A stretch of DNA of 64,000 nucleotides, from positions 1 through 64,000 of the forward strand of contig CAUYUJ010000094.1 of the NCBI GenBank assembly GCA_963575745.1. The letters are read 5' to 3'. The DNA comes from Prorocentrum cordatum (lineage: Eukaryota). A program made the position numbers and the translations under genes. Positions 40,073 to 58,165 of the stretch are shown one piece after another. The notes below the pieces were generated by a model, which searched no databases, was not told the origin of the DNA, and saw only the letters and a program-made list of their open reading frames with translations. The first letter of the stretch is position 1, and each line of letters begins with the position of its first letter.

Positions 40073-41639
40073 CTCTGAGAAGGAGAAGGAGGAGGAGGAA
40101 GAGGAGGAGGAGGAGGAGGAGGAGGAGGAGAGGAGGGGGAGAGAGGAGGAGGAGGAGAAGGAGGAGGAGGAGGAGGAGAAGGAGGAGGAGATGTCGAGGA
40201 GGAGGAGGAGTAGGAGGAGGACGGGGAGGAGGATGAGGAGGAGGAGGAAAGGGGGAGGCGGCGGCGGAGGCGGCGACGGGCGCGCCTCAGCCCAAGACGG
40301 CCGCTCGACGCGGCGGCCCTGCAGGGCCGCCGCGTCGAGCGGCAGCCTGGCGCGGCTGAGCGCGGCGCAGGCGAAGTTCGCCTGCGCCGCGCTCTGCGCC
40401 GCCATCTCCAGCGGCATTGCCGCTGGCGCGGGCGGCGGGGGGGGCCCCGCGCGCCGCTCGGCAGCCAGAGCGGCCCACCGCACGTTGCCGTCGTCCACAA
40501 CCCAGAGGGTTGGGGGACGACGACGTGCGACGGGCCGATGGCTGCCGAGCCCGTCCCACCCCTCGGGGATGTCGAGGAGGATCCCCGACATCCCCGAGGG
40601 GTCCTCCGAGAGGAGACTGCCCCATGGCTCGGGGTCGCCATCGAAAAACATGTCTTGATCTGTTTTTTCGATGGCGATCCCGAGCCGCGAAGCAAAGGGA
40701 AAAGGGCGGGCGCGCCCCCGCGCGGCCAGTAAGCCGCACGCGCGCGGGCGGCGTCTCCTCCTCCTCCCTCCTTCTATCCTCCTCCTCCTCCTCCTCCTCC
40801 TCCTCCTCCTCGCCTCCTCCTCTCGCCCTCCTCCTCTCGTCATCATCCTACTCCTCCATCGTCCTCCTCCTCCTCATCCTCCTCGTCCTCCTAACCCTCC
40901 GCTCCTCCCTCGTCCTCCTCCTCTCGCCCGCCTTCCCTTCGTAATCTCATATACTCCCCTAGTCCTCCGTCCTCCTCTATCCTCCTCCCGTCCCTTAACC
41001 CTCCGCGCCTCCCTTTCGCCAGCGTCCTCCTCCTCCCCTCATCCCCCTTTCCTCAATCCTCCTCCTCCTCCTCCTCCGCTCCTCCTTTCCTCCTCCTCCT
41101 CCTAGCTCCCTCTCTCTCTCCTCCTCCTTCCTCCTCCTCCTATCCTCCTCTCATCCTCTCCTTCCCTCCCTCCTTCCTCCTCCTCCTCCTCCCTCTCTCT
41201 CCTCCCTCCTCCTCCTCCTTCTCCTCCCCTCCTCCTCTCCTCCCTCTCCTCCCCTCCTTTTTTTTTTTTTCTCCCCCCCCCCCCCCCTCCCTCCTCCCCA
41301 CCTCCTCTCGCTCTGCGCTATCTTCGTCGTTTTCTTCCTCCGCATGCTCCTCCCCTCCTTTTATCCCCCTCCTTCCCCTCCTCTCTTTCCCCCCCCCCCC
41401 CCCCCCCCCCCCCCTCCCCCTCCTCCACCCTCCTCCCCTCGCCAGAGGAGGAGGGGGAGAGGAGAAGGAGGAGGGGGGGCAAGATGAGGAGGAGGAGCAG
41501 CAGCAGGAGCAGGAGGAGGAGGGGGAGAAGGGGGAGGATGAGGGGAAGGAGGAGTTTGAACGACCGCACCACTGATCAACGACATTAGCGCTGCAGCGCA
41601 AGAGGAGGCGGAGGAACGAGGCGGAGAAGAGGAATCGGC

Positions 41640-41838
41640 GACCATGCACTGTTCAGGTGCTGCAGCACCGAAGCGTCAATGAAAAAGGTGCGCTACAGCG
41701 CCATGCAGAAGGAATCCACGTTTTCAAGGCGGAGAAGAGGAGTCGTCGACCATGCAACGTTCAGGTGCTGCAGCACCGAAGCATTTAGCAATGTAAAAAA
41801 GTGCGCTGCAGCGCCAGTAAGGAATCCACGTTTTAAGC
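41640..41838. repeat. ~108-bp tandem duplication, each unit with two GCTGCAGC-type palindromes
   Basis: GACCATGCA..GTTCAGGTGCTGCAGCACCGAAGC...GTGCGCT(A/G)CAGCGCCA...AAGGAATCCACGTTTT occurs twice, immediately downstream of the transposase stop. Confidence 0.8.
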
Positions 41839-43718
41839 TAAAGCGCACCACCGCGGCTGCGACCATATCGGGCGCGCCGCTCGGACGCCGCCGCCCTCGC
41901 GCGGCGCCCACGCGAGCGAGCACACGATGCTCGCCGTGTGCGCCCAAAAGGCGTCGGCATCGCCGCCAAGCACGTGCGCGGAGGCGCGCGGGTGCAGCTT
42001 CTCCTTGAAGAAGTAGGGCAGGACCAAGCTCAAGCCATAGTAGTGGCCGTTCTTGGTGAAGGAGAGGTGTTTCAACACCTCGGCCGCAATGTGTTCCCCT
42101 CCTCCGTCCTCCAACAGCACGACGTCGCCGTATTTGACGTCGTGGTAGCGGCACCGCGCTGCAGCGGACGTAACAAAGTCCGCAGGCCCGAACTGCTGCA
42201 GCAGTTCGCGCGAGATGGCCTTGGACGGCCTGGTGGCGTTAACCAGGCAGTTAACCTTAAAGGCGCCGCCATCCATGAGCTGCCACAGGTGCCGCTCGGT
42301 GACGCTCTTCAGGACAGTGGCGCCCCAGCCGCTGGAGGCTGCAGCCCCCGCCTGAAGAGCGTTCGCAAAGCGCTTGCTGGTCTTGTGCTTGCGCTCCAAA
42401 ACCCAGCGCGACGGCAGCGCCACATGGCCCCAACGCCTCACGTAGTTGGCGAAGTGGTGCAGGTAATGGAACGTCTGCGCCATCGTTTCCTTGCCAAAGA
42501 CGCTGCTGTATGACAACAAAAACCTGTTAACCGCAGCCTGCAGCTTATCCGCGTCTGCCTGACGCCTGGATACTCGTAGGATTTCTTCCACAACGATCGT
42601 GCGCGCCTCGAACACTGCGCAACCCGATCGGACTGCAGGCGCTGCAGCGTCGCTAGCCACCTCCCTGAAGAAACACGTCAATCCGCCCGCGCGAACGCAT
42701 GTCCGAACAAGAGGGGTGCAATACATATCCTACAGACATTCACGTGCGCTGCAGCGCATGTATTATTGGTCTGGCGGGGGCGCGAAGCATGCAATGATAC
42801 TTGCATGGTTGTGAGCCCCTCGCTGGCGGTACACTTGAAATGCTTGCTGTCAACGTGGGACCTCACGCGCTTCCCGCCGAAGATCGCGCACGTGTCGGGG
42901 GAGATGGAGTGGCGCCCTGGAAACGACCAGTCCTGGAAATATGCGTCTGCGCGCGCCCAGTAACCCTTCAACCTTCGAAACATTTGGAACACCAGAATGT
43001 TATATGTACCGTTGACGAAAATACAATGCATCCAATCAAACATGACTGTCTCGAGCGGCTTGAGTTTCCGAACCCGCTCAGGCAAATGGGGGTCCCAGTT
43101 CCAGCCAAGTCGGCGCTCCAACTCCTGGAACTCGCCCTTGTTCATGATGTTGACCCCTTCGATCAATCTGTTGCAGATGGCATCGAGCAACGGCGCCGTC
43201 ATCGGCTGCAGCCGCGACGCATCTGGTTCCGAGTGGTGAACAGCGACACCCGTCGCATCAGAAGCAACTATATCCCGAACTTCGCCCTTCAAGAACACGT
43301 TGCGGCACATAAAACATGGTTTGATTCCTGACGAACCTTTCATTCCGATCAAGCGGTGTATTGCATCCTCGTCCGCGATCCGACAGAGCCGCTGCAGCGA
43401 CGCAAGAAGGCGTAATGGATATATACATGTGCACATGTATGCTAACTAATCTTGGGTGCTATGCGGCGACCGCTGCAGCGGCTGCATGTAAATTCCGAGG
43501 TCCATCTGGATGAGCTCCGTCGCGCCGTCGGGGCGCAGCCGCAAGCTGATGCCTGCGCTGAAGTTGTGCCCCTGATCAGGCCAGAACTGCGCGAGGATTG
43601 CGCCCAGTAGCATCGGCAGTCCGCGCGGCTGGATGTCGTTCGCGGTCTTGGCCCGCATCGTCGCGAGCTGGAACCACGCATCCTGCGAGCAAATCGCAGC
43701 ACAACTGGCGCTGCAGCG

Positions 43719-43773
<55 letters not shown>

Positions 43774-44283
43774 CCCCCTCCCCCCCCCCGCATATATCGT
43801 TGCTGCAGCAACGCTATCGCGAAAGTCCTCCGACGAAAGCGCCTGCGGGCCGAATTCCGCGATCGTCCAGTAGATGCCCCAGGACTTGCGGTTCTGCGCG
43901 TGCGCCAGCGCGTTGCCAGCGCCTATTTCATCGCCGTAAATGATGATGTGCCACGGGCGTGGCAGCTCCAGCGCCCGCTGCCACAGAGGCTGCGTCGCGG
44001 GGAGGGCGCTGCAATGCCACAGCATTGCTGCTGGACTGCAGATCTCCACCGCGTGCTGTCCGACTATCATGTTCTGGTGGAGCTTGCCGCACGGCGTGTT
44101 CTCACCGACCATGAGCTCCCGAGCGTCTCTGATATCCTGGCGTCGGGATCCCAATTCGGGGATTCCGTCTCGCTTAACGGACGCCAGGAATTGCGCCATC
44201 GCATTACAATGCATGAATGGCAGTTCCGCGCGAAGGCGGGACAGCCGCCGCAGCTTCGCTGGGCGGTCGTCCTCTGCCGCCAT
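41833..44283 (-). CDS. CMC/CACTA(EnSpm/Plavaka)-like DDE transposase, about 4 exons
   Basis: Motifs in order across joined ORFs: WHIIIYGDEI (D1), IADEDAI (D2), KPCFMC (CxxC), FDWMH, FHYLHHF, WVLERKHK (E). This matches the CMC signature D-D-C(2)C-[M/L]H-H(3-4)H-E. Intron 1 (43683-43827) is a clean in-frame GA..AG intron (SSE|DAWF). Introns near 43390-43490 and 42680-42800 have uncertain junctions. Confidence 0.75.
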
Positions 44284-44964
44284 CGCGCGCGTTCCCGAGG
44301 CAAGCTTGCCTCCGTCGCTGCGCGCGCGCGGAGGGGCCCCTCCGCTAGGGGCCACGGCGACTACGGATGGAAATGAGGCTGCACCGCGTGGAGAGCAACC
44401 AAATGCGCGCTGCAGCGCTAACTGCCAAGCAACAGTCTGGGAGCACATGGCGCTACAGCGCCGCTAACGTTCAATGATGACAATCTGACGCGCTGCAGCG
44501 CGAACGTCCTCCTCCTCCTCCATCCTGCTCGCCATCCCCCTCGTCCTCCTCCTCTTCCTCCCCCTCCTATACCTCCTCCTCCTCCTCCTCCTCCTCCCCC
44601 TCCTCCTCCTCCGCCTCATGCGCCCCCTCATCCTCCCCATCCTCCTCCTCAACCTACCCATCCTCCTCATCATCCGTCTCCCGTCCCTTCATCCTCCCCG
44701 TCACCATCACCTTCATCGTCAACAGCATCAATATCACTCGCCCTCATCATCCGCCACATCACCATCCAACGAGAAACTGCAAGCGAAACTGCGCTGCAGC
44801 GCAACACATTAACACAGCATGATCCGCGCGCAAACTTTCAACCGTGGTCCACGGAGAAGCGCTGCAGCGCAACTCAAACAACACGCTCAACCACGCCCCC
44901 TCCAGCCTTTACCAACCAATCGAACCAGCATGCTTCAGCAGGCGGTCGCCGAGGCCGACCTCAC

Positions 44965-45395
44965 TCAGGTCACCTTCATCTTCTTGGCGTTCCGCAGCGA
45001 GGTCAACGCCTCGTTGAGTTTCTGGTTGGCCACGTCCGAAGCGGCGATGTCCATCTGACCCCGACCCTGCTACTCATACTCCTCATCCTCCCACATCATC
45101 GCCTTCCACCTCCTCCTGATCATCCCCCCTGTCGTCCTTCTCCCCCGCTGCAGCGGGGGAGTAGCCTGCCACACTCATGAACCCCACCGTCCTCCTTCTC
45201 ATCCGCCTCCTCATCCACCTGCAGCTCCGCGGTGCGGATCTGCACCTGCTTCTCCGCTTGCCTGGCGTTCTTCCGCGCCTCCTTCACCTCTGCTGTAGCA
45301 GTCGCCGTCGCTCTCGCGCGGGCCTCGCGCAACTCGTCGCGACGGTCGGCGCGCGCTTGCGCTTCGAACGGCTTGTCGCAGCGGCGCGCCGCCAT
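44965..45395 (-). CDS. Small coiled-coil protein (88 aa, 2 exons)
   Basis: ATG at 45395; GT..AG intron 45055-45218 joins ...IRTAELQ|MDIAASDVANQKLNEALTSLRNAKKMKVT* in frame; Ala/Glu/Arg-rich heptad-like composition. Confidence 0.55.
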
Positions 45396-46136
45396 TGCGA
45401 GCCCAGTGAGGAGGCGGAGGAGGTCCGTTGCCAGCACCCGCTGCAGCGAACGATGGCGGCTGCGACGCGCGAGCCAAGTGAGGAGGAGGAGGAGGAGGAG
45501 GGAGGAGGGCATGCCATCGGCAACGCGCAACATGAGCGAATCACAGCGCTGCAGCGCGTGACTTGGCAACAACCATGCGGGAGACAACGCTCGACATCAC
45601 GAATGATGGCGCTGCAGCGCGTATCGACGAGAAACGACTGGCACTCAAGACGAGCACGTCACGCAATACATGGACACCGCGGCTGCAACTGCACACTCAC
45701 AAACGCGCCAACGCTACAACGGCACCACAAGTCTGACAGGCGCTGCAGCGCTGCATCGGAACACAACAGCACGCAATATCTACGCCACCATCCAGGAAAG
45801 CGAGCGCTGCAGCGCTGCATCGTGATCATGATGGCGATGCAAACGTTGAACACAAAGGCGCCAGCGCTGCAGCGCCCGCATCCAAGAGAACCCGTCAACA
45901 TATTTGACTTTCATCCTCCTCGTCGTCCGTGCGAGCCGCGCGACCGCCAGGCAAGACCATCGCCACTACCGTTCATATCATCGGCCAGCGTTCCATCCAA
46001 CCTCGCACTAATCCTCACCATCCTCCTCATTCCTTCTCCTCCACATGCTCATCCTCCTCATCATCCTCCCCATCCTCCTCCTCGCCCTCAGAATCCTCAT
46101 CCTCACCTCCATATGCCGACAGTGCCCGTTGCGCGC

Positions 46137-47992
46137 TCACGGCTTGCCGCGACGGCCAGTGAAGTTCGGGTCGCGGCACGTGCCGCAGCCATTCGGCAGG
46201 TAGCGGCATTTGCTGCACCCGAGTGCCATTTGGCCCCGTTTGGCTGCCTCCTTGCCCTTGGGCTTGGCCTTGGCCGTGGCTTTGGCCTTCCCTTTGCCCT
46301 TGGCCTTCGGTTTGGCCGTGCCCTTGGCCGCCGTCTTGCCCTTGCCAGCGCCTGTCTTGTTCTTGCCCTTGCTCGCGTTCTTGCCCTTGCCCTTCTTGCC
46401 CTTGCCCTTGCCCTTGCGAGGCAGCTCGCCTTTCGCGCTGCCCGCAGCCAAGGTCTCGATCGCCTGCAGCACAGCATCCTCGTCTCCGTCTGCTGCTGCA
46501 GCAGCATCTTCGTTTGGCGGCGTTGGCGCTGCTGCAGCAGCATCTGGCGCCGCCGCTGACAATGCTGGCCCAGCTGGCGAATCACCAATCGCGGGGGGAC
46601 TCGCGGGGGGGCTCGCCGTGGGCGCCGCAGGGCGGCGCGGGAAGAGCTGCAGCTGCAGCTCGTTGGGCGGCGATGGCGGTGGCGCAAACGCTGCCAGCAT
46701 TTGCTGCATCACGGCCATCGCGTCCATGGGTTGCATTGGCGCTGCAGGCGGCACGGAGGGTGACCCCGATGGTGTCCATGGCACAATGGCAGTGCTCGGC
46801 TGATGCGGTGGGGCGGCAGCCCGCAAGCCCTTGTTGGTCAGCCTGAGAGGCACGCGAGCCTTGATGGCGTTGAGACCCGCAGGCCGCTTCAGCGGCGCAC
46901 GCGTAGCATGAAACCTATCATGCTCTATGCGAGGTGGACCTAAAGGACCGAGCTCACCGAAGCACCCAAGACATCCAGAACAATCAGCGCTGCAGCGCAT
47001 GACGGGGTGGCAGCAGCCTCGTAGATGCGATGCCACGTTGGCGAGGTCGCGCGTCACATCGATCGGCGGGTCCGCATCGGTGTACGCCGCGTCGAAGATG
47101 TGCTGAGGGAGCTGCCGAGGATCTGCTGGGAAATTCCAAGTCACTGTCGCCGCTTGCCCCGTCGCGCCCCTGCGGCTCGCCAAGAACTGACCCTGTAAAG
47201 GGCGACTCGTCGGGAAACCCTAACGCTGACGCGCCGAATCGCATTGGCTGCAGTCAGTGCGATGCGATGCGTCTGCGTTAGGCGTTCCCGCCGAATCCCA
47301 AACCTTCATCTCCGTCACGATCCCGTAGAGCTGCCCGGGGTTTGCGTCTGGAAGATGGGCGCATGCCATCAACGCCGCCAACTATTCCAGCGTGTTCTCG
47401 CCCGGAACCGTCAAGCCGATGGCACCGCAACGTTTGATCAACGCGCGCGCCTTCGCGACGATGCTCTGGTTGGGGTCGCGAAATAAACCCCAGTCCTGCA
47501 CGGTAAAGTCCACCAGCCGACGAATCGACGCAGGCATGCTGCAGCAGGATAACATAAGTACATTTGGAACATGAACATGGTAACATACATAAATTACAGA
47601 ACAAACAATTAAACCATACATGTGAATAACACTTCGGCGGTCCGATGTGCAAAGCACGATGGATAGCACCGCCCTGACGCGAGCGTCTGCGCGCGCATCT
47701 GGAGCGCGGGCGTCGCCGTGCCCACGCGCGCGGCCAGCGCGGCGCTGAGGCGCGCCTTGCGGCTGTCCGCTAAGCCCGACGCGGTGATTCGATTATGCAG
47801 GGTAGCTGCTTGGGCAGCCCCGATCGCCCCCAAGTTGTGAAGCTGCAGCTGCACGCTCCTGGACAAGGCGGACTGGCTCTGCGCCATCGCGTCGGCGGCG
47901 ATGACGCCGATCTGCGATGCGAAGAAAGCGCCGCAGCTGTCCATGTTATCCAGGATGTGGTTGATGGGTGTGGCCGCAGCCGCGGCAGACAT
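46137..47992 (-). CDS. Multi-exon protein with Lys-rich histone-H1-like tract and C-terminal GCSKCRxxxxGCxxC zinc-binding motif; in-frame TAG at 47382-47384
   Basis: ORFs 47609-47992, 47382-47530 and 46137-47183 are co-oriented and read as protein (DFTVQDWGLFRDP; NFPADPRQLPQHIFDAAY; VPLRLTNK; KGKGK/AKAK tract; LGCSKCRYLPNGCGTCR). Exon joins are approximate. Confidence 0.65.
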
Positions 47993-48820
47993 GATGCCCT
48001 CCGCGAGGGCGAGGGGGTGCGCGGACGCTCCGAGGGGAAGCGCGAGGGAGGGCCTCCCACACTGCGAGAGCTGAAGCACTCGGCTGCTGAGGTGGAAGAG
48101 AGGCCACAACAGTACAGATGCGCTGCAGCGCAACGATCGCATGCAATTAAGGAACACACGTGAGCGCTGCAGCGCTCAGCAGAAATCATCGTCACAAAGT
48201 AACATGAAGCGCTGCAGCGCTATGCATGCGCACCATGATGGAACGCATGGTAGTGGGCAATAGGGAGAGAGATATAGAGTGATGGAAAGGAGAGGAGGGA
48301 GATAATGAGGGACACGGGGGGGAGGGGGGGGGGGCGGGGGGAGATGCGAGGAGACGCGGGAGGGAAGGACACGAGCGCGGGCGGGCGGGCGGGCAGGACA
48401 CGGGGGGGGATGCATGATCATTTGAGGAACACGGAAGGGACGGTGCGAAAGACACGGAGGGGTGGGAGGGACATGGGAGAAACACGGGGGGGGGGGGGGC
48501 ACGGAAGAGACACGGGAGGGACACGGGAGTTCGGGGGCGAGCGGGCGGACGGACGCGGGAGCGGCGCGGAGGGACACGGGCGGGAGCGCACGGAAGGCAT
48601 GTGGAGACACGGAAGGGGCACGGGAGAGACGCGGGAGAGACACGGGAGACGGATAGGTATACACGGGAGCTCGGGAGCGGGCGGGCGGGCAGACACAGGA
48701 GGGACACGGAAGGTGTCCGAGGAGGGCGCGGGACGGATTCAGGAGATGCGCGAAGTGTGATCAGGAGCAAATGCCGAAGCGATCTGGGAGCCTCGAAGGC
48801 AGCTGGGACATCGACAGAGG

Positions 48821-48970
48821 CGTGTCTGTTCAATAGAGGGGGCTATTGAACAGACACGGGCGTGGCTGTTCAATAGAAGGGGGCTATTGAACATGGCATG
48901 TTCAATAGATGGGGCTATTGAACAGACGCGGGCGCGGCTGTTCAATAGAGGGGGCTATTGAACAGACGCG
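48821..48970. repeat. Four tandem hairpins TGTTCAATAG-N6/7-CTATTGAACA
   Basis: Directly visible; the first has a 16-bp stem (48821-48858). Intergenic within the element. Confidence 0.9.
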
Positions 48971-50187
48971 CCGCTGTCAGACAGCACCACCTCTGCAGAG
49001 GGGCACCGACGCTCTCAGATCGCTTCACCCGAAGCTCCCGTTCGACCTCAGATCAGCCATCCTGATGCCAACACCCAGCACTCCAGCCCACCCCAACGCC
49101 CACCCACGCAGTCCCAGAACACTGTCCACACTGCTGATTTCGATGTGGGAGTGAAGCTAAGAGAGGCGCGAAGTACATCACGCGGCGCTGCTGCAGCAAC
49201 GTCGCGACGAGGTTGACGACGCCGAAACCGCTGTCAACTGCAAAGGTCTACGCTCACGGCTCTGCTGCAGCAGCGTCGCGATGGCTCGAGACTGCCGAGG
49301 ACAAGGCTGATGGGAGCTGGTGAGGCTGCCAGGAGGCCATGGGGGGAGCTACTCGGCGGCGCAACGAACTGCGCTGAAGGGGAGCAGGGAGAGTGGCGAA
49401 GGGCGATGCGATGCGAGACGGCTTGCCATCTGAAGTGCCCCAGGACCCCCCCCCCAAGTGCCCCCAAACTTTCCTGGCCAATCCAAGGCCGACCCCTGGC
49501 ACATCATTCCATGCGAAAAAATGTCGGCGGATCAGGATGTGAACGTCGACGATGGCAGATATATGTGATGAGGATATCGGAGCGCCTTTCTGGGCGACAG
49601 CGCGGGCGCACCACGCGATCTGGCGCACGAAATATAACTTGGCCTAAACACATGCATGCGTCGGCGTCAGCTATGCTCGCGAACTGATCCAATCCACCCC
49701 CCCATTGCTCCCATTGATCTTACATGTTGGGTTGCTACAGCATGTATCCTATCACTATGCGTTCGTTGTCCCCCTCGCTCACGGGAGAGTGGATACCCGC
49801 TGCAGCGGGCATCCTGTCTACCGTCTCTCTCCAATGTGTCTTCACTCCACCCCCACGCTGCGTCTCCATCGTCCCCCTCGCATTCCCTATGTATATCACG
49901 TCTCCCCCCTGTCTACCTCTACTATAGTCCCCCCTCTCCCCCTGTCTACCTCCACTGCGTTACCGTCCCATTCCGTCGCCCACCAGCAGTGGAATGCTCC
50001 GCGGCCGCGCCGCAGCTCTCATGTGGCGCCCGCAGGCGCTGCAGCGCCAGGAGGGCGCAGCGCCGAGGGCGAGCCCTCGCGAGGGCGAGGGCGAGGGCGC
50101 CTGCCGAGGGCGAGCCCTCGCGTCGCCGAGACGGCGTGGCGCCGCGCCTCCTCGGCGGCCGCCTCCGCGGCCTCCTCCGCGGCCTCC

Positions 50188-50745
50188 TCATGAGGCGCCC
50201 CTCGGCGGCCTCCTCAGCGCCTCCCCGGGCGCCTGCGCCTCCTCGGCGGCCTCCTCGGCGCCAGCGCCGACCCAGACCTGTGCAGGCCCAGCGTAGAACT
50301 CCTCCGCGAGGGCGGCCGCGTCGGCGCACTCGCCCTGCAGCAGCAGCTCGCAGAGCTGCTGCGCCCGATTGAACCAGCCGCCACGCCGCTGCTGCTGGCC
50401 CCCGTCGCGGACAAGCTTGCCCTTGCCGCCCTTGCTCTTGTCCTTGCCCTTGCCCTTGCAAGGTGGGCCGCCGCCGCCCTTGTCCTTGCCCTTGCCCTTG
50501 CCGCAAGGTGGGCCGCCGACGTTGTCCTTGTCCTTGTCCTTGTCCTTGCCCTTGCCCTTGCAAGGTGGGCCGTCGCTGCCGCCCTTGCCGTGCGGGGCGG
50601 CGCGCGACGTCGGCCGCGCCTTGGCGGCAGCGAGCTCGACAGCGGGGTCCCGCGGCTCGAACCCTGGCGGCGGCACCGCAGGCGGCGTCGGCCGCAGGAC
50701 GGCGAACTCCTCGGCGCCCTCGTCGTAGTCGAGATGCGACGCCAT
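50188..50745 (-). CDS. Small basic protein with GPPCKGKGK repeats and a GGW helical micro-domain
   Basis: MASHLDYDEG... three GPPC(G)KGKGK repeats, then RGGWFNRAQQLCELLLQGECADAAALAEEF. Co-oriented with the other element genes. Confidence 0.6.
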   Translation of the reverse strand: MASHLDYDEGAEEFAVLRPTPPAVPPPGFEPRDPAVELAAAKARPTSRAAPHGKGGSDGPPCKGKGKDKDKDKDNVGGPPCGKGKGKDKGGGGPPCKGKGKDKSKGGKGKLVRDGGQQQRRGGWFNRAQQLCELLLQGECADAAALAEEFYAGPAQVWVGAGAEEAAEEAQAPGEALRRPPRGAS

Positions 50746-51831
50746 CGCTGCGCGATGCAGCGAGCGAAGCTGCAGCCCGCCAAGCTGCATGATGGGCTTG
50801 GTTTCCACCACCAGTACCATAAGTTGGAGGGAGAGGTCCTCCTCCTCCTCTTCTTTCTCCTCCTCCTCCTTCTCCAACATGTGGTAGTGGTGGTGGAAAC
50901 CAGTCCCATCACTGCAGCTGAAGCTGCACTCGGGCGCGCGGGCGCGCGACGCTGCAGCGCGCGAAGCTGCAGCTGCAGCTGCGCGGAACAAAAACAGCGG
51001 CGGTGCCAACGACGAATACGATGGCGACGACGCTGACGACGATGGACCCCTGCTAACCAGTCGACTGACCCCCCAAAGTAACATCACCCCGCAAAGTAAC
51101 ATCACCCCCAACTGAACCTCCGAAGGCCAACGACTGGATTGACCTCCCCAGGGCTGCCCCCTCAGGATAGGAGGAGGAGGAGGGGAGGAGGAGAGGGGGA
51201 GGAGGAGGATTGGAGGGAGAGGAGGAGGGGGGGGAGGAGGGGGGGCAGGAGAAGGAGGAGGAGGAGGAGGAGGACACGGATGAGGAGGAGAAGAAGGAGA
51301 GGGAGGAGGAGGAGAAGGAGGAGGAGAAGGAGGAGTAGGAGAATGAGAGGGAGGATGAGGAGGAGGAGGAGGAGGAGGAGGAGGAGGAGGAGGAGAGGGA
51401 GTATGCGGAGGCAGGAATAGGCAGAAGGAGCGGGGGGGCGGGGCATGGGTGCCAACTGGTTGTCTTCCTCCTCCTCCTCCTCGTCATACTCCTCGTCCTC
51501 GGCCTCCTTCTCCTCCTCCTCCTCCTCCTCATCATCATCATCATCATCCTGCCCCCCCTTCCCCTGCTCCGAGGTGCTGGCAGCGAGCGGTGGGAACCTG
51601 TGAAAATGAGGGCGTTCCAGAACGTCGTCCTCAATGTCGTCGTCCTCCTGATCACCCTCCTCCTCCTCATCATCATCCTCCCTCCACCTTCTTCTCCTGC
51701 ATGCACTGCTCTGAATTACGTCGTCTTTAACGCCGTCGTCGTTGTCTCTGTCGCCGTCGCCGCCGTCGCGATGCTGTATCCGACTGAAACAGTGGTGCTG
51801 CAGCACTGACCGCGCGCGCGCCGCGCGCCCG

Positions 51832-52185
51832 TCACTTCCGCGGCTTCTTCGCGACGTGGTATTGGACTGCCAGCGCAACCGCTGTCTCGCGGCCCCCGCG
51901 CTGAAGCGCTTCCCGAATCATGTCGCACACAAGCTTCCACGTGCCAACCTTGGTCTCAGCATCGCGCTTGCGCGCGGCTGCAGCCGCGCGCGGGGCTGGC
52001 ACATCACTGGCGGCTGCAGCCGCGGTCCTCGTCGACGTCGAAGGGGGTGGTGGCGGCGGCGGCGGCGGAGGAGGGGGAGTAGCCGCATGTGTCGCATCCG
52101 ATGCAGCGGACTTCGCCTTCGGCGGCGGCACTGGCTCCGAGGGAAGCCGCCATGGCGGCGTCGCTGCACTCATGTTGGCAGCCAT
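51832..52185 (-). CDS. Small Pro-rich protein with GxW helical micro-domain and C-terminal NLS-like KKPRK
   Basis: C-terminus VGTWKLVCDMIREALQRGGRETAVALAVQYHVAKKPRK aligns without gaps to the micro-domain of 50188-50745. Confidence 0.5.
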   Translation of the reverse strand: MAANMSAATPPWRLPSEPVPPPKAKSAASDATHAATPPPPPPPPPPPPSTSTRTAAAAASDVPAPRAAAAARKRDAETKVGTWKLVCDMIREALQRGGRETAVALAVQYHVAKKPRK

Positions 52186-52695
52186 TGATGTTCTGATCAC
52201 AGGTGGCTGCGAACCACATACAATAACCTAAAGCGAACATGCGGGCTGCAAGCGCGACCGAAGCGCTACATCAACACGCCAGACGCACACAATGTAAGTC
52301 AGCGCTGCAGCGCGACGCAAAACTCTGATATCGGCACGCCAGACACCCGAACGTAAGTCAGCGCTGCAGCACGATGGACTCCAAACACACGAAACGCAAG
52401 TCAGCGCTGCAGCGCCGTGAGGTCACACATCGACGGCGGCAACGCGTGAGAGGCACACTTGATCGTAGTGTCGTCGTGCTGCAGCACGCTTGATCATACC
52501 AACGATTCGCAATGACACCAACAGTAGCGAACATTGGGGGGATCCACCAACAATCCGCAATTATTATCCCAATCCTCCTCTTCCTTCTCCTCCTCGCCCT
52601 CGTCCTCGTGCTCGTCCTCCTCGCTGCCATTCTCAATCGCACTGCCGACCGTGATCGCACGCCCCAGCGATGCGGTCGACCGAGCGCGCCGCAGC

Positions 52696-53460
52696 TCAGT
52701 CCGAGTCGGCCTCCTCCTCCTCCGCATCGCCCTCCGCCTCCGCTTCCATCTCCTGGAGCTCATCCGCTTCGCAATCCTTGAGTTCGGCGGTGCACCACTT
52801 CGCCGCGGCCGCTTCAGCGTCATCCTTGCTGCAGCCGCGGTTTGTGCGGAACAAGGCCGTCCTGCTGCAACCGCAGTCTGTGCGGACGGCCCGCCAAGCT
52901 TGGAGCCGCTGCACCCAATAGACGCGGGCGCCGCAAGGAACATCGGTCTCGTGGCGCCGCGGGCGCTTCAGCACCGTGCTCGCCTCTGCCGCCTCCGCCG
53001 CCTCCTGAAGCAATTTGGCCTTGATGTACTCTACGCCCTTCTCGTGCAGCACCACCTGCAGCTTGTCCCTCCCCCCCTTATGAGGTGGGGGAATGACAAT
53101 CTGCAGCTCTGTTGCCTCCGTATCGCCAAACGGCGGCAGCTGCACTGTCTTGAAGCACTCGTCGACTGGAACCTGGCGACTGGCGCGGCCGGACCGCGTG
53201 GTCGGGCGGCGGCCTGGCTCCGCTGCAGCGAAGAGCGTCGTCGGCGCCGTTGGCCCCGACGACGCGGTGCGCTGATTTTTCAGCCACGTTAGGAACATCG
53301 TGCCTCGCAAGCCCTGAGCCTTGCCGCACACCCACTTGCTCCAACCTGCGGTGGTCACGGTGATACACTCGCGGTCTCCGATGACCTCGACGGCCGTGAC
53401 CAGCTCGCGCCCCGTACGGTTGTCGTGCAACACGACGCAGTCGCGCTTGATCGTCGTCAT
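52696..53460 (-). CDS. Intact 254-aa protein with C-terminal AP2-like DNA-binding domain and acidic tail
   Basis: aa ~177-223 (nt ~52792-52932) GARVYWVQRLQAWRAVRTDCGCSRTALFRTNRGCSKDDAEAAAAKW follows the ApiAP2 pattern (GVxW...W.A...F...EA...A..W). NLS-like KRPRR precedes it. Confidence 0.7.
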   Translation of the reverse strand: MTTIKRDCVVLHDNRTGRELVTAVEVIGDRECITVTTAGWSKWVCGKAQGLRGTMFLTWLKNQRTASSGPTAPTTLFAAAEPGRRPTTRSGRASRQVPVDECFKTVQLPPFGDTEATELQIVIPPPHKGGRDKLQVVLHEKGVEYIKAKLLQEAAEAAEASTVLKRPRRHETDVPCGARVYWVQRLQAWRAVRTDCGCSRTALFRTNRGCSKDDAEAAAAKWCTAELKDCEADELQEMEAEAEGDAEEEEADSD

Positions 53461-53957
53461 CGCGCGCGCGGCGCGCCGAGGCTGCAGCCCGAGCGCGGTC
53501 GCACTTCAGCGCCAAAATTGCTGCGATGGAGTGATGAGGCAACATGTGCGCGGACGAGGTGCTCATGATGAGGTGCGCTGCAGCGCATGTGAAAGATGAA
53601 GCGAAGAGCAACGATCACATCGAGCACAACAGTAATGACGAAGCCGCTGCAGCGGCATGTCTGTGGGAAAGGCTGATGTCAGCACCAATATTGTACAGTC
53701 GCTGCAGCGACGATGCTGGCGCAACGAATCGTTCCGCGCGCTGCAGCGCCGCGGCAAGTATCGCACTTCGCACCAACCCGCACACTGTTTACACCAATCG
53801 GAGGGCCACGCTCGGTGCCGTCATGTGCGCTCGCCGCTCCTTAAGCCCCCTCATCCTCCTCCCTATACCCAACCTTACCCTGCCTCCTCCTCCTCCTCCT
53901 CCGCATCGCCCCTCCCTCCTGCCTCACCCTCCCGCGTGGTCCCTCTATATCGCCAGC

Positions 53958-56869
53958 TCAGGCCGCCCTGAGCTTCTTGGCTGGCCGCGGCTGCAGCCGC
54001 GGCCACGGCTTCACCACCAGGAAGTCGCCCGCGGACAGGGCGCAAGTGTTATGCATCTGGGGCGCCCCCACCTGCACCTTGTTGACGCCTGTCCCGAACG
54101 TCACGGTCTCCTTTCGGAGCTCCATGCTGGGCTCTGAGTCGGACTTTGCCACCACCCAGAAGGGGATGACAAAGGCGTCGGGGCCCCGCGACCCCTCAGC
54201 GGGGGGCCCTGCGAAATGCGGGCCCACGAAGAACTCGTAGAGGCCAACCTTCCCCAACGAGATGCTCTCCGCAGCGCAGCCCGTGCTGACCCGCGTGGAC
54301 GAGGCCGAAATGCGACCACTCCCACCGCGTGGAGCTACATGGCGCGCAGTCGGTAACATCACTGACCTCGTCGCCACGGCCTGACGTGCCCCGAAATCCT
54401 CGCTGCCCCGTGCTCAGCGCAGCGCTGCAGCGCGGCGTCGTCGGAGGGGGGCGCGGACGATTGCGGAAGCACAAGTCTGACGAGCTCACCCACTTTGAAC
54501 GCTCGCTTGCAGCGCACGGCAGGTGGGTCCTGCAGGATCTCCAAGTGCAAAATGTTCGCCTGGTACTTCAGCGCTTGGAGCCACAGCGCCATGTCGCATG
54601 CCCCCTTGAACGCGCCCATCGCCCAGCCCTCGTGGGCTGGCGGCAAGTGCTCCTTCGTGAACGACAACTGCTCTTGCACCCTGGACGTCAACTTGTAATT
54701 CTCGAGCAATATGTTTACTTCAATCCGCCCGCTCGGCTAACTGCTCCGTGCGCTGCAGCGCATCGACCAACCCATTGCAACTTAAGTACAGGAAATACAA
54801 TATCGCAGTTGCTACCTCCTCCTCCCCCCTCCCTGCTCCCCACGGGCGGCGGGGTGGCTGCAGCCACGCAATGGAGATCTCTTCGCCCACCAGGTCGCCG
54901 TGCAACTTCTTCTGAGCGGTGATCCCATTCTCCGAGATGGAGAGCACCTCGAAGACGTCATCCACCTACTTCTTCTGGACGATGTGCTTCCCCACGTCGA
55001 ACCCTGCACGCCGCGTGCGGAAGACGTTGCTCTTCAACTCAGCGGCCGACGACGCTGCCGAGCGCGGCGCGTCTGCGTCGGCGCTTGCTGGCAACTCGGG
55101 TGCGCCATCGCCTTGCTTGTCGGTCTGCACCGCCTTGCCGAACTCGATCCCCAAGCTCTTCATCTGCAGCTGGGCTGGCTCCCCGAGCTCATGGAGGAAG
55201 ACCTCTCTGGAGGGTCGCTGCAGCGACATTGAATGGCGAAAAGCAGGGAGGGATGGAAACAAGGAGCACACGAAAGGTGGCATGAGAAGATACCTGTGCT
55301 ATATCTGCTACGCATCCGAAAGTGCGGTCTCCTGGCGCTCGCTTCTTCACCAGGTACATGGCACAGCGGACATCCAACTTTGTGATGTGCAAGAAGCCCT
55401 GCTCCGCTCCGATATCCAACCTCTTCGCGAGCGACCTTGCGTCGGCCATGAGGTTGTCGGCCGCAGCCACGTCCGCCTTGCGGGACGCGACGTGGACGAT
55501 CTCGTTTGCCTTGATCCGCCCATCGCTTCAGCGATTGCGTTTGGGAATAAAGCAATGTAACGGTGCGTGTGTGTGTGTGTGTGGGGGGAGGGGGGAGGGG
55601 TGGGTACGCAGTTCTAACAATGCAGCGCAATGCATAGATGCGCTGCAGCGCATGTCACTACAAGGGGGCGCCGACAAGCTTATGGATGGTCCTGCACATG
55701 CTATCCACCACGTGCTCGCCTGAATAGTTGGCCTTCACGAGCGCCGCTACGACATGCGGGTACGACTCCTGGTGCTTCCCCCATTTAATCGAATTCAACT
55801 TGCGCCAGAATTCAGAGCCGCACATCAAAGTTTGCCCCGAGACGTCCACATTCGTGAAGGTCTTGAGGGCTTCATCTATTTCACGGAGAAGTTCTCCGTT
55901 TTGTGGCCCGAGCTCAACAAACTTGCACAAGTCAGCGATCCACGCCTTGCAAGGTGGGTTCGCGTGGCCCGCTTGCTCGGCGATGTCGCGCCAATCGGGC
56001 TTGCTGGAACCCTGAGCGAGGCTGTGTGCCAAGAGCATCCGCCCACCTGCCTGCAGCAAGCGCCGAGCCGATCAAGTGCTGCAGCACGGTAAGATATAAT
56101 GCTCCTGCTCCTCGTTCTCACCTCCTCCCCAACGCACTCCCACTCATCGCCCTCCTCGTGCATCATCCTGGTCCTTACTACATACCGCTATATACTAGAG
56201 TGGGGATAGGCTGCAGCCTGACCGAATGATCTCGGTCTCGTGAACCGCCTCCCTGACGTCGGCGTTCAAAGCCCTCTGCGCGAAGTTCTTGAGGCCCTTC
56301 ACTTTGGCCACCGCGTGCTTGATGATCAACCACGTCAGGCCCTTTTTGACTGCCGTCGCAAGTTGCGGATGCAACGCGCACAGCTTTTCGGAGTCGATGT
56401 TGTCCCGAGAGTCTGCCCGCGCCTTCACTGTGGTCGGCGCCTTGGCCAGCACGCAGCGGAGGAAGACGTTCGTGTGGGAGCCGCCCACTGACGTATACCG
56501 CAATGAGTCCAGCGGGGGGCACCGACCCCCGCTGAGCCGCGAAAGGCGGTCGTTCGCCATCGCGGTCTCTTCCAACTGCGCCCCATGCGGGGCCTCGAAG
56601 GCAGTGGCTGCAGCCGTCTGGGCCAAGACGAAGCCCTGGGCGCAAATCTTCGCGCCTAAATTGTGAGCCCGCGCAGGGTTCACTTACGAACCGCTGCGGT
56701 TCCGAATGTCGATGCCCATCTGGTCCGGTGGGACCTGCTGGTAATACGCTAGCCCCTCCGCCAGCAGGAACTCCTTCAGTTGATCCCACCCCGATGCCAA
56801 CCTCCCCGAGGCATTGCTTTCCTCGATGTACTGCAAGATCTGCTCCTCCTGACGCGCCTGCAGCGCCAT
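53958..56869 (-). pseudogene. Multi-exon ParB/Srx-like N-terminal plus divergent SET-like C-terminal protein with in-frame stops
   Basis: N-terminus VPPDQMGIDIRNRSG*VNPARAHNLGAKICAQGF...SVGGSHTNVFLR is ParB-N-like. C-terminus AVRCKRAFKVGELV...IPFWVVAKSDSEPSM...PQMHNTCALSAGDFLVV resembles SET-N/SET-C. Stops at 56684-56686 and 54966-54968 are followed by in-frame continuation. At least one clean GT..AG intron (DIAQ|VFLHE). Confidence 0.6.
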
Positions 56870-57524
56870 GCCAGCGCTATATATAGCGCCAAATGCAACG
56901 TGCGAGCCCGCGGGCGCGACGGCGGATGCGGCGCGCGGCCGCAGCTTGAGACAAGCTGTCGCGCGGCGTGCGCGTGAACATCGACTTGCATGGACATGCA
57001 ACTTGCGAGCAAAAATGTTGATCTGGGCTGCAGCCCGAGGCCCATGAAGCACGAGCGCGCACGCGCTGCAGCGCGATGCGACATCACGACGACAACCATT
57101 TTTTTGCGCTGCAGCGCAAAGTAACATACGTGCTATCAAATTTGGAGCGCTGCAGCGCTCAATGCGACCATTGAAAAACAACGAATACAACAAAACATAA
57201 TTGACATGTGCATTCAAATTCCTTGCAAACGGAGCTGGGCGAAAATGAAGATCCGAACAACGTGCAACTAGAAAACCATGCATTTAACTCAACATTCAGC
57301 GCTGCAGCGCTTCATCTTCAGCGCACGCAGCGCTTCATGTTCATATAAATCCGAAGGCAGCGCTGCAGCGCTTCTCATATTTAAAGCAAAAATCCAGGAC
57401 ACCGACTCCAAATCAAAATGCAAAATTTGTAGCGCTGCAGCGCTCAACGAACAAACTCAGCTCTTTCAAGACGTGGATTTACCTTTTTTCCCTGTGCATG
57501 GCCCTTGGATAACAAGTGCAATGT

Positions 57525-57748
57525 AACCGCTAAGTCACTTATAACCTACTTAGCAAACTAGCTATAAGCGGTTATAAGTGGTTAGCTAAGTGCGCTAAGC
57601 ACTTAGCTAACTGGTTATAAGTGGATAGCTAAGTACTTACTAAGTCATTACTAAGTGGGCCACTTAGTAATGACTGAGTAAGTACTTAGCTAAGTCCGCT
57701 AACTACTTACTAAGTACTTAACTTAGCGTAGTAAGTATGTTAAGTACT
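57525..57748. repeat. Right subterminal repeat array
   Basis: Units such as TAAGTGGTTAGCTAAG, ACTTAGCTAAC and CTAAGTACTTA, related to the left array. Confidence 0.8.
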
Positions 57749-57771
57749 TAGCAACCGCCGCGGCCATCCAA
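57749..57771 (-). repeat. Right terminal inverted repeat of the 18-kb element
   Basis: TAGCAACCGCCGCGGCCATCCAA. Confidence 0.9.
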
Positions 57772-57814
57772 TTGCCCGGGTGCCCGGGGTGCCCAGAAGT
57801 GCCCGGGGGTGCCT

Positions 57815-58165
57815 AGCCCAATAGCCCTATATCCCTATAGCCCAATAGCCCAATCGCCCTATATCCCTATAGCACTATAACCCTATAGCCCTATAGCCCT
57901 ATAGCCCTATAGCCCGATAGCCCAATAGCCCCATAGCCCTATAGCCCTATAGCCCTATAGCCCTATAGCCCTATGGTCTTAAAGCCCTATAGCCGTATAT
58001 AGCCCTATAGCCCTATAGCCCGAATAGCCTTATAGCCCTTAGCCCTATAGCCCTATAGCCCTATAACCCTACAGCCCTAAAGGCTTCTAGCCCTATATCC
58101 CTATGGCGACATCGCCCTATAACCCTATAGCCCCATAGCCCTAAAGCCCTAAAGCCCCATAGCCC
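57815..58165. repeat. (CCCTATAG)n satellite
   Basis: Degenerate 8-bp tandem repeat. Confidence 0.9.

Follow-up and report, generated by a model that had tools for sequence, protein, structure and literature searches.

A 64,000-nucleotide stretch of the genome of the dinoflagellate Prorocentrum cordatum (contig CAUYUJ010000094.1 of NCBI GenBank assembly GCA_963575745.1, positions 1 to 64,000 of the forward strand, hereafter the window) contains one copy of a multi-gene cut-and-paste transposon, whose body is studded with a single palindromic word, GCTGCAGC. The repeating unit is a palindrome of 12-14 bp in which the core is fixed and the arms covary: the flanking bases differ from site to site yet stay complementary to each other. 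The excess of the word, the covariation of its arms, its confinement to the element, its presence in distant relatives, the keeping of positions between relatives, and an origin of coding sites by substitution, with use of rare codons, are all observed. We favor, at a probability of roughly 0.55, the view that the word is a family-specific fold-back signal kept by selection, in which the tip would be sequence-specific and the stem sequence-free.

A palindromic word with a fixed core and covarying arms

The word GCTGCAGC is found 76 times in the window, whereas 100 dinucleotide-preserving shuffles average 2.80 copies and never exceed 7. Nearly all of these copies, 73 of 76, fall within positions 41590-57441, and the remaining 48 kb of the window holds 3. 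Comparison with other 8-bp palindromes, a check proposed in a first-pass annotation of this DNA, sets the word well apart, as the next commonest palindrome of that length has 11 copies in the same interval, against 73. Being a palindrome, the word is identical on both strands. Introns and spacers carry a higher site density than exons do. The gaps between sites average 220 bp, with a coefficient of variation of 0.94 against 0.98 in simulation, which amounts to near-random placement.

Perfect arm lengths at the 89 CTGCAG sites in 41500-57500 are 3 (14 sites), 4 (3), 5 (16), 6 (22), 7 (24), 8 (4), 9 (2), 10 (1), 11 (2), and 12 (1). Lengths 3-4 are a background class, while lengths of 5-7 and above are the motif class. 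The first-pass annotation had singled out seven perfect palindromes with unrelated arms, and all seven are exact, with arms of 8-12. They are listed here with the span of the word and with its decayed sites; L001 and other L numbers, used below, denote relatives of the element, and P numbers denote protein models.

41590-57441, no strand: span of the 73 GCTGCAGC sites; exons, introns, and spacers all hold sites.
42189-42208: 20-bp perfect palindrome CGAACTGCTGCAGCAGTTCG, arm 10, lying in an exon of the transposase gene as the first-pass annotation had placed it, where it encodes ELLQQF of P0012.
43798-43813: 16-bp palindrome CGTTGCTGCAGCAACG, arm 8, in intron 1 of the transposase gene.
45140-45161: 22-bp palindrome CTCCCCCGCTGCAGCGGGGGAG, arm 11, within the significant long-arm tail.
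48161-48178: 18-bp palindrome TGAGCGCTGCAGCGCTCA, arm 9, in a three-site spacer cluster.
51970-51991: 22-bp palindrome GCGCGCGGCTGCAGCCGCGCGC, arm 11, within the long-arm tail.
53982-54005: 24-bp palindrome TGGCCGCGGCTGCAGCCGCGGCCA, arm 12, reading WPRLQPRP in a minus-strand open frame.
57103-57120: 18-bp palindrome TTTGCGCTGCAGCGCAAA, arm 9, in a seven-site cluster that lies at the upstream end.
41692-41699: decayed site GCTACAGC with its arms intact; a second decayed site lies at 44452-44459.

Among 12 candidate decayed cores, each with one mismatch and with both inner arm pairs intact, the change falls in the central GC in 7. At 56874-56889 (GCGCTATATATAGCGC), the usual arms enclose ATATAT in place of the central GC.

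The symmetry of the arms was examined by a permutation test, in which left and right flanks were re-paired randomly among the 73 sites 20,000 times, so that the GCGCTGCAGCGC consensus and the composition at each position were kept. The first flanking bases are complementary at 70 of the 73 sites (permuted mean 30.3), the second at 56 (30.0), and the third at 42 (20.1), and none of the 20,000 permutations reached the observed value at any of these three positions. The fourth is at chance, with 19 complementary against a permuted mean of 18.2. The symmetry of the arms, which the first-pass annotation had inferred from its seven examples, therefore exceeds what consensus and composition provide. 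The pairs at the first flanking position are C-G (43), T-A (12), G-C (10), and A-T (5), the last class consisting mostly of overlapping GCTGCAGCTGCAGC repeats. When overlapping and near-duplicate contexts are dropped, 70 of the 73 sites remain, and bases 1-4 are complementary in 67, 54, 40, and 19 of them. Twenty-four of the 26 sites whose left base departs from the consensus C are still complementary; together with the permutation tests, this upholds the earlier argument that a fixed binding consensus would not yield such a pattern.

Pairing that runs at 96%, then 77%, then 58%, and then at chance is the pattern of a stem fraying at its base. The computed folding energy of the 16-mers at the sites has a median of -4.2 kcal/mol as DNA and -6.7 as RNA, where control windows give 0.0 and -0.3. 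A minority of arms are longer than this pattern would suggest. Among the 34 sites with an arm of at least 7, an arm of at least 10 occurs four times (p 0.002, by permuted outer flanks) and an arm of at least 11 three times (p 0.0004). In 41590-57441, the tenth base from the centre is complementary at 32 of 73 sites, against a permuted mean of 17.7 (p about 5e-5), while bases 8, 9, and 11 are at chance; this surplus is absent from the relatives of the element, where 13 of 60 sites are complementary at the tenth base.

The sites might involve no structure at all, and be explained instead by a duplex binding site for a dimeric protein, combined with codon usage (CTG CAG, GCT GCA GC) and CpG-rich composition. 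The strong consensus GCGCTGCAGCGC and the status of CTG and CAG as the preferred Leu and Gln codons speak for such an explanation. However, independent half-sites of a dimeric duplex binder predict about 30 pairs at the first flanking position rather than 70, and therefore the two arms must matter to each other. The pairing of 24 of 26 non-consensus sites, the greater density of sites in introns and spacers than in exons, and the rare codons used at Ala-Ala-Ala sites (see below) run against it as well, and we grant this explanation hardly any credence. The 5-hydroxymethyluracil motif of dinoflagellates, which the accessible text of 10.1101/2023.11.30.569493 gives as TG-rich (GTTGTTGTTG), was also considered, and bears no likeness to the word.

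Confinement to a transposon family and its mode of origin

The element that carries the word occupies the following interval.

41567-57470, minus strand: motif-rich body of one copy of the multi-gene cut-and-paste transposon, with putative genes mostly on the minus strand.

Depth in contigs of the repeat family jumps from about 6 to about 140 at the bin border 41566/41567 (run X1) and is about 140-150 inside; the transposon family is high-copy. Between the repeat border and the first GCTGCAGC motif are at least 23 bp. Scanning metagenomes with the transposase alignment produced 33 loci. One of these, L001 (54% amino acid identity in the transposase), is collinear with the window element over 41.7-48.0 kb and has 25 sites in 6.1 kb, where shuffles have 0.72. 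Locus L005, at about 30% identity, has 13 sites in 4.0 kb, where shuffles have 0.57; loci L002-L009 and L030 otherwise hold 2-4 sites each. Covariation recurs in the relatives. At flanking bases 1-3, L001 is complementary at 24, 16, and 16 of 25 sites (permuted 16.4, 9.2, and 7.9), and all 75 sites of the 33 loci together are complementary at 51, 36, and 37 (permuted 22, 21, and 20). Relatives of lower GC content favor other arms, namely the T-A arms of GTGCTGCAGCAC and also ATGCTGCAGCAT. In L014 (27% identity), three palindromes of 18-22 bp (CTAACATGTTGCAACATGTTAG, GTGTTGTTGCAACAACAC, and TTGATGTTGCAACATCAA) at 825-915 and 1585-1615 are built on the core GTTGCAAC, which represents a mirrored C-G to T-A change in the third pair of GCTGCAGC.

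The share of perfect palindromes with an arm of at least 6 that are centred on TGCA separates the motif-bearing lineages from other DNA, as follows.

Window element: 57 of 68 centred on TGCA.
L001: 16 of 22.
Other motif lineages: 16 of 28.
Clade of ten intron-less relatives of 45% GC: 1 of 14.
Remaining loci: 1 of 18.
Host flanks: 5 of 38.

In a tree of the conserved block, the motif-rich loci fall outside a well-supported (100/99) clade, the ten intron-less relatives, whose site density is about 0.17 per kb; that tree does not resolve the motif-rich loci into a single clade. The word characterizes the transposon family rather than the host, and is present in relatives at 25-57% protein identity. 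Other hexamers seen in distant relatives (AAGCTT, GCATGC, ATGCAT, and CATATG) were considered as analogues and set aside, as they amount to a slight excess of the hexamer, with arms of 3, or else to a tandem repeat.

Tests of conservation compare one window copy with one close relative, L001. In a pairwise alignment, 10 of 32 window sites (an upper estimate for those in non-coding sequence) share a column with an L001 site, or 12 of 32 if a CTGTAG variant is counted; from the L001 side the figure is 10 of 25. A circular-shift control gives a mean of 0.11 and a maximum of 2. Among the shared sites are two that lie upstream of the transposase gene, the pair in its intron 1, and some in spacers. 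At the place aligned to the 43798-43813 palindrome, L001 has the same unusual arms, CGTTG..CAACG, around the centre CTGTAG. Over 13 shared sites, 27 of 39 arm pairs are both paired and identical in the window and L001, and two arm mismatches are likewise identical in the two.

Coding sites show how the word arises. Where the 20-bp palindrome encodes ELLQQF, relatives at about 65% identity have ELTKQF, ELTKLF, or ELTKYF, with no indel, and the DNA of L001 differs from the palindrome at 42189-42208 in 6 of 20 positions. A second coding site, encoding SAAAR, corresponds to SPAAR or SPSAK in relatives, again with length unchanged. Since no length change accompanies these coding sites, they originated by substitution and not by insertion. 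Ala-Ala-Ala in transposase exons is always encoded GCT GCA GCN (two of two cases in the window and likewise in L001), yet among Ala codons GCT and GCA each account for just 13-14% in the window and 21-25% in L001.

The first-pass annotation had offered two explanations for symmetric arms, selection for a stem structure or a symmetrising process centred on CTGCAG. The former fits most of the evidence, and the latter cannot be the main cause. Under mutational symmetrisation, a break or nick at CTGCAG would be hairpinned or folded back, and repair would copy one arm from the other, through template switching or through palindromic fill-in once a hairpin is opened; symmetry of the arms would then persist with no selection for pairing. 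The tail of long arms above chance (4 of 34 at 10 or more, and 3 of 34 at 11 or more) is what such a process would leave, and the modelled structure of the transposase puts it in a fold family in which the members with solved structures cleave DNA by way of hairpins. A further point in its favor is a long palindrome outside the motif-rich body.

40300-40343: 44-bp perfect palindrome centred on CCTGCAGG, arm 22, 1.2 kb outside the motif-rich body.

Homology to P0014, a gene model from another copy, extends from 40411 as far as 40325, at most 4 nucleotides from the centre of this palindrome, itself a CTGCAG; the remaining 250 or so residues of P0014 are absent from the window. From its sequence, the palindrome looks like a fold-back at a rearrangement breakpoint or broken end. 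Symmetrisation cannot, however, make or keep an invariant core. The change from ELTKQF to ELLQQF needed several substitutions to reach CTGCAG that neither arm could have templated, while the outer arms at this site, GAACTG and CAGTTC, probably pre-existed if codon use was alike, those of L001 being imperfect. Symmetrisation also leaves unexplained why pairing stops after the third flanking base, why two arm mismatches stay unchanged in the window and L001, why coding sites lack indels, and why relatives at 25-57% identity preserve both the positions and the density of sites. Neither the element (11 of 68) nor the flanks show an enrichment of palindromes with other centres, and the motif is missing from the host flanks. 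The alignment of copies that had been proposed to look for one arm perfected from the other was made with L001, and found, among 39 pair positions, 2 two-sided differences, both at shared sites and as symmetrisation might produce, and 1 compensatory pair. We regard the process as an unlikely source of the pattern as a whole. It could explain only the few extra-long arms and the one 44-bp fold-back, and may act now and then.

A different mutational origin would make the sites relics of transposon ends, either as two abutted termini (…GCTG|CAGC…, a signal joint or circle junction) or as the scar of insertion and excision at a palindromic target. Transposons of the CACTA/EnSpm-Mirage-Chapaev-Transib (CMCT) clade mostly end in 5'-CA..TG-3', according to the available portion of Kojima 2025 (PMC12730594), and abutted ends of this kind would give a TGCA centre, with arms symmetric over the inverted repeats. 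Two direct copies of CGCTGCAGCGG also bound an 81-bp piece at 43391-43479. Yet the coding sites arose by substitution without indels, and at neighbouring sites the outer arms are no more complementary than the inner ones (11 versus 12 of 72 with at least three pairs). A search for the ends of the window copy found no termini, and the first motif stands at least 23 bp inside the repeat. We know of no mechanism that would leave seventy empty junctions in one element, and consider this origin very improbable. The 81-bp piece itself contains an 18-bp palindrome with another centre, GTGCAC (ATACATGTGCACATGTAT, 43423-43440).

Target duplications of 2-5 bp are a further mark of CMCT transposons. Terminal inverted repeats were found neither in the window copy nor in eight relatives, and the search of the window copy turned up short subterminal matches only: AATCCACGT, at 41713 and 41823, has an inverted match at 57471-57479. 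These two copies belong to two tandem units of about 108 bp at 41625-41848, downstream of the transposase gene. Each unit contains GGTGCTGCAGCACC and a second motif, and one of the second motifs is the site decayed to GCTACAGC. Beyond the other border, an AT-richer stretch of TAAGT/ACTTA words (57520-57760) adjoins the element, beside a satellite of CCCTATAGCC-like units at 57800-58170 whose contig depth is about 20,000 in X1. Inside the element, at 48280-48960 between two motif clusters, a G-rich repeat of GGGACACGG-like units is followed by four to five copies of GGGGGCTATTGAACAG. C>T and G>A predominate among the differences that set the window copy apart from other-copy contigs over 41000-58000 (runs X1, X2, X4, and X7); in X1 they account for 51 and 40 of about 190 places. 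Such a dominance is expected from deamination of methylated cytosine. The 14-bp motif windows contain 0 of 40 variant places (40 of 287 examined), where about 2.6 would be expected; this shortfall is not significant.

Genes of the element and a candidate reader

Two genes of the element could be recognized by comparison with relatives.

41848-44285, minus strand: transposase gene of about 590 amino acids, with at least three introns (at least four exons), a predicted RAG1/Transib-fold core, and a predicted C-terminal BAH-like domain.
46137-47965, minus strand: conserved partner gene upstream of the transposase, located by tblastn matches of frames from L001, L005, L006, and L010, with a lysine-rich tract.

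The transposase is 91-94% identical to proteins labelled Prorocentrum cordatum. The gene models are uncertain, in that the public models P0011-P0014 disagree among themselves. Sequence databases identified little. Pfam found no family for 17 transposase relatives, a PDB sequence search with the transposase found nothing, and a search of viral contigs found no transposase relative. A structure model was examined for the intron-less relative P0015, built from 17 sequences, with a predicted local distance difference test score (pLDDT) of 81 and a predicted template modelling score (pTM) of 0.81. Foldseek with this model gave 48 matches at E of 0.001 or below; among the matches listed are RAG1, the amphioxus RAG1-like protein BbRAGL, and the Helicoverpa Transib transposase HzTransib, the best match being 6dbx_A at 7e-9. 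VIA-align superposed the model on the RAG1 core with Z 16.6 and a root-mean-square deviation of 5.3 over 441 residues, on BbRAGL with Z 13.0, and on HzTransib with Z 12.8. The invariant columns of the 17-sequence alignment A3 are, in P0015 numbering, D231, C250, C253, D343, H346, H500, H504, and E522, which make up the conserved pattern D, C-x2-C, D-x2-H, H-x3-H, E; the catalytic D among them is assigned by analogy. As modelled, the transposase has the RAG1/Transib fold together with the signature of the CMCT clade. Since structures within that clade have been solved for RAG1 and Transib only, the match assigns the enzyme to the clade as a whole and not to a place beside RAG1 in particular. 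The label "RNA-directed RNA polymerase" borne by a near-identical protein finds no support in this fold.

The C-terminal BAH-like domain (residues 566-689 of the P0015 model) matches the BAH domain of maize ZMET2 with Z 11.3, and also matches DNMT1 and other readers of histone marks. Such a domain is odd in a lineage with little histone packaging.

The introns of the transposase gene have splice sites of the forms CAG|GC..CAG|G and CAA|GT..TAG|G. Two sites of the word lie in intron 1, and one lies midway along the 70-nucleotide intron 3; in neither does the motif form the two intron ends. Intron 2 is ambiguous, since a motif sits at each of its borders, read in frame as CTG CAG; this holds for the window and L001 alike. 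Introner-type introns of dinoflagellates carry inverted repeats and short direct repeats at the intron ends, whereas here the motif lies within introns 1 and 3.

The end of the partner gene (46137-46340, minus strand) encodes a tract rich in lysine, alanine, and proline, followed by a cysteine knuckle, GCxKCR..GCxxCR.P.F.G.R. The knuckle tail is found also in the upstream frames of L001, L005, L006, L017, L018, L021, and L023, while the tail of L010-L012 differs. As a motif-specific reader of the word, this zinc-knuckle tail is ruled out, for motif-poor lineages carry it too. Pfam yielded no credible family among 12 + 4 + 58 frames of the element, the partner gene included and the 58 being further minus-strand frames; the only matches, all short of the curated cut-offs (DUF3915 at 4.8e-05, Mito_fiss_reg at 0.0055, and Methyltransf_23 at 0.019), look like low complexity or chance.

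The fold-back signal that we favor would take the form of a mini-hairpin on a single strand, or of one arm of a small cruciform. Its tip would be TGCA, closed by two fixed pairs, C-G and G-C, and followed by two or three free pairs. A possible reader, though a rather doubtful one, is the element's own transposase, by analogy with RAG. In the part of Posey et al. 2006 (PMC1618415) available to us, mouse RAG transposase inserts preferentially at hairpin tips, the four tip bases shift its efficiency 50- to 140-fold, a change of stem has no effect, and one tip (CT) blocks target capture. The likeness to the word lies in the decisive role of a few tip bases, the irrelevance of the stem, and the existence of a tip that inhibits. 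The difference is that the RAG work, as described there, used synthetic hairpins and cruciforms with mouse RAG1/2 in vitro, whereas the present signal is known from sequence. Were the transposase the reader, the sites might serve as landing pads, or as decoys that keep an excised element from inserting into itself; of the two we prefer decoys, because the sites are spread evenly over the 16-kb element. Some 70 mini-hairpins with TGCA tips could then occupy the target-capture pocket, as a cis-encoded target immunity against self-insertion that would rest on the kind of tip recognition mouse RAG displays in vitro, a proposal that we put forward as speculative and decidedly improbable.

The same pairing could act in RNA. 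The sites would then be hairpins in sense transcripts, signals for processing, export, packaging, or dimerisation, and palindromic only through a self-complementary loop. The median RNA folding energy of -6.7 kcal/mol is compatible with this, and the identified genes are co-oriented, so that every site would be transcribed. Mismatches of the G-U type at flanking bases 1-3, over the window and all loci, number 36 in the sense orientation against 20 in the antisense (one-sided p 0.022). As proof of an RNA hairpin this excess is weakened by a control position that is unpaired and leans likewise, 20 against 14; most of the G-U bias is therefore attributable to strand composition. Perfect two-strand symmetry is unnecessary for an RNA signal, however, and the intergenic spacers are also filled with sites. 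An RNA hairpin thus seems to us an improbable explanation.

Several considerations weigh against the fold-back signal in DNA. In relaxed duplex DNA, a 5-bp stem with a 4-nucleotide loop does not suffice for a stable cruciform, and folding would call for a protein or a single-stranded state. Our view that intrastrand pairing is the feature read comes from covariation. The arms hardly changed at the shared sites, so the covariation lies mostly between sites and not along lineages. There, one clean compensatory change (G-C to T-A, near 46993) was found among the 39 pairs, as against three one-sided and two two-sided arm changes that leave one lineage unpaired. In poorly conserved parts the aligner may anchor on identical words, which is why the sharing of non-coding sites is an upper estimate. 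About two thirds of the sites are lineage-specific; site turnover is high, and density, rather than each site, may be what is kept. As to the reader, the fold match may be shared by the CMCT clade in its entirety, so that hairpin chemistry for this enzyme is a candidate property. The comparison of outer and inner arms at neighbouring sites gives no sign of nested insertion, and so no support for the landing-pad version. Finally, as a target for mouse RAG a TG (TGCA) tip ranks no higher than average in the accessible data of Posey et al. 2006 (PMC1618415).

Known systems and significance

Several known systems resemble the word in part. HIP1 of cyanobacteria (GCGATCGC) is a short GC-rich palindrome, over-represented many-fold in coding and non-coding DNA, often extended symmetrically by one or two bases, and unsettled in function. 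HIP1 is genome-wide in bacteria, however, whereas the present word is confined to one eukaryotic transposon family, with 3 sites in the 48 kb of flank, and has covarying arms. The subterminal transposase-binding repeats of CACTA/En-Spm and Ac/Ds are short words iterated within an element of the same broad transposase clade and read by a protein that the element encodes, but they are fixed, non-palindromic words clustered within a few hundred bp of the ends, whereas the sites here are placed nearly at random over 16 kb and their arms covary. The PstI palindromes of Neurospora mitochondria and the GC clusters of yeast mitochondria are built on CTGCAG, are spread through the genome, and occur in frame in genes as well. 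These are mobile insertions with a double PstI core in AT-rich organelle DNA; the present word is nuclear, has a single core, and reached coding sequence by substitution. Quasipalindrome correction by template switching, of the Ripley type, turns an imperfect inverted repeat into a perfect one in a single step. The four extra-long arms and the 44-bp fold-back could result from it, but such correction lacks both sequence specificity and a set length, and is unable to produce a constant core.

Searches of the literature on GCTGCAGC or palindromes in dinoflagellates, on transposable elements of Prorocentrum cordatum, and on dinoflagellate Transib produced nothing relevant, judging by the search entries. 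Iterated palindromes and transposase-binding repeats are known, while an element-wide word with a fixed tip and covarying arms appears, from the same entries, to be undescribed in the literature searched.

The word persists in relatives whose transposases have only a quarter to a half of their residues in common. GCTGCAGC provides a clean sequence tag for finding an unannotated transposon family in dinoflagellate genomes and marine metagenomes. The enzyme of the element has, as modelled, the fold of RAG1, for which no better targets than hairpin tips are known and for which one tip inhibits potently in vitro. The existence of the word opens to test how RAG-like transposases choose or avoid their targets, and what role hairpin recognition had before V(D)J recombination. 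If the decoy proposal is true, the reading of hairpin tips would be an ancestral property of the RAG/Transib/CACTA clade, and one that is put to use.

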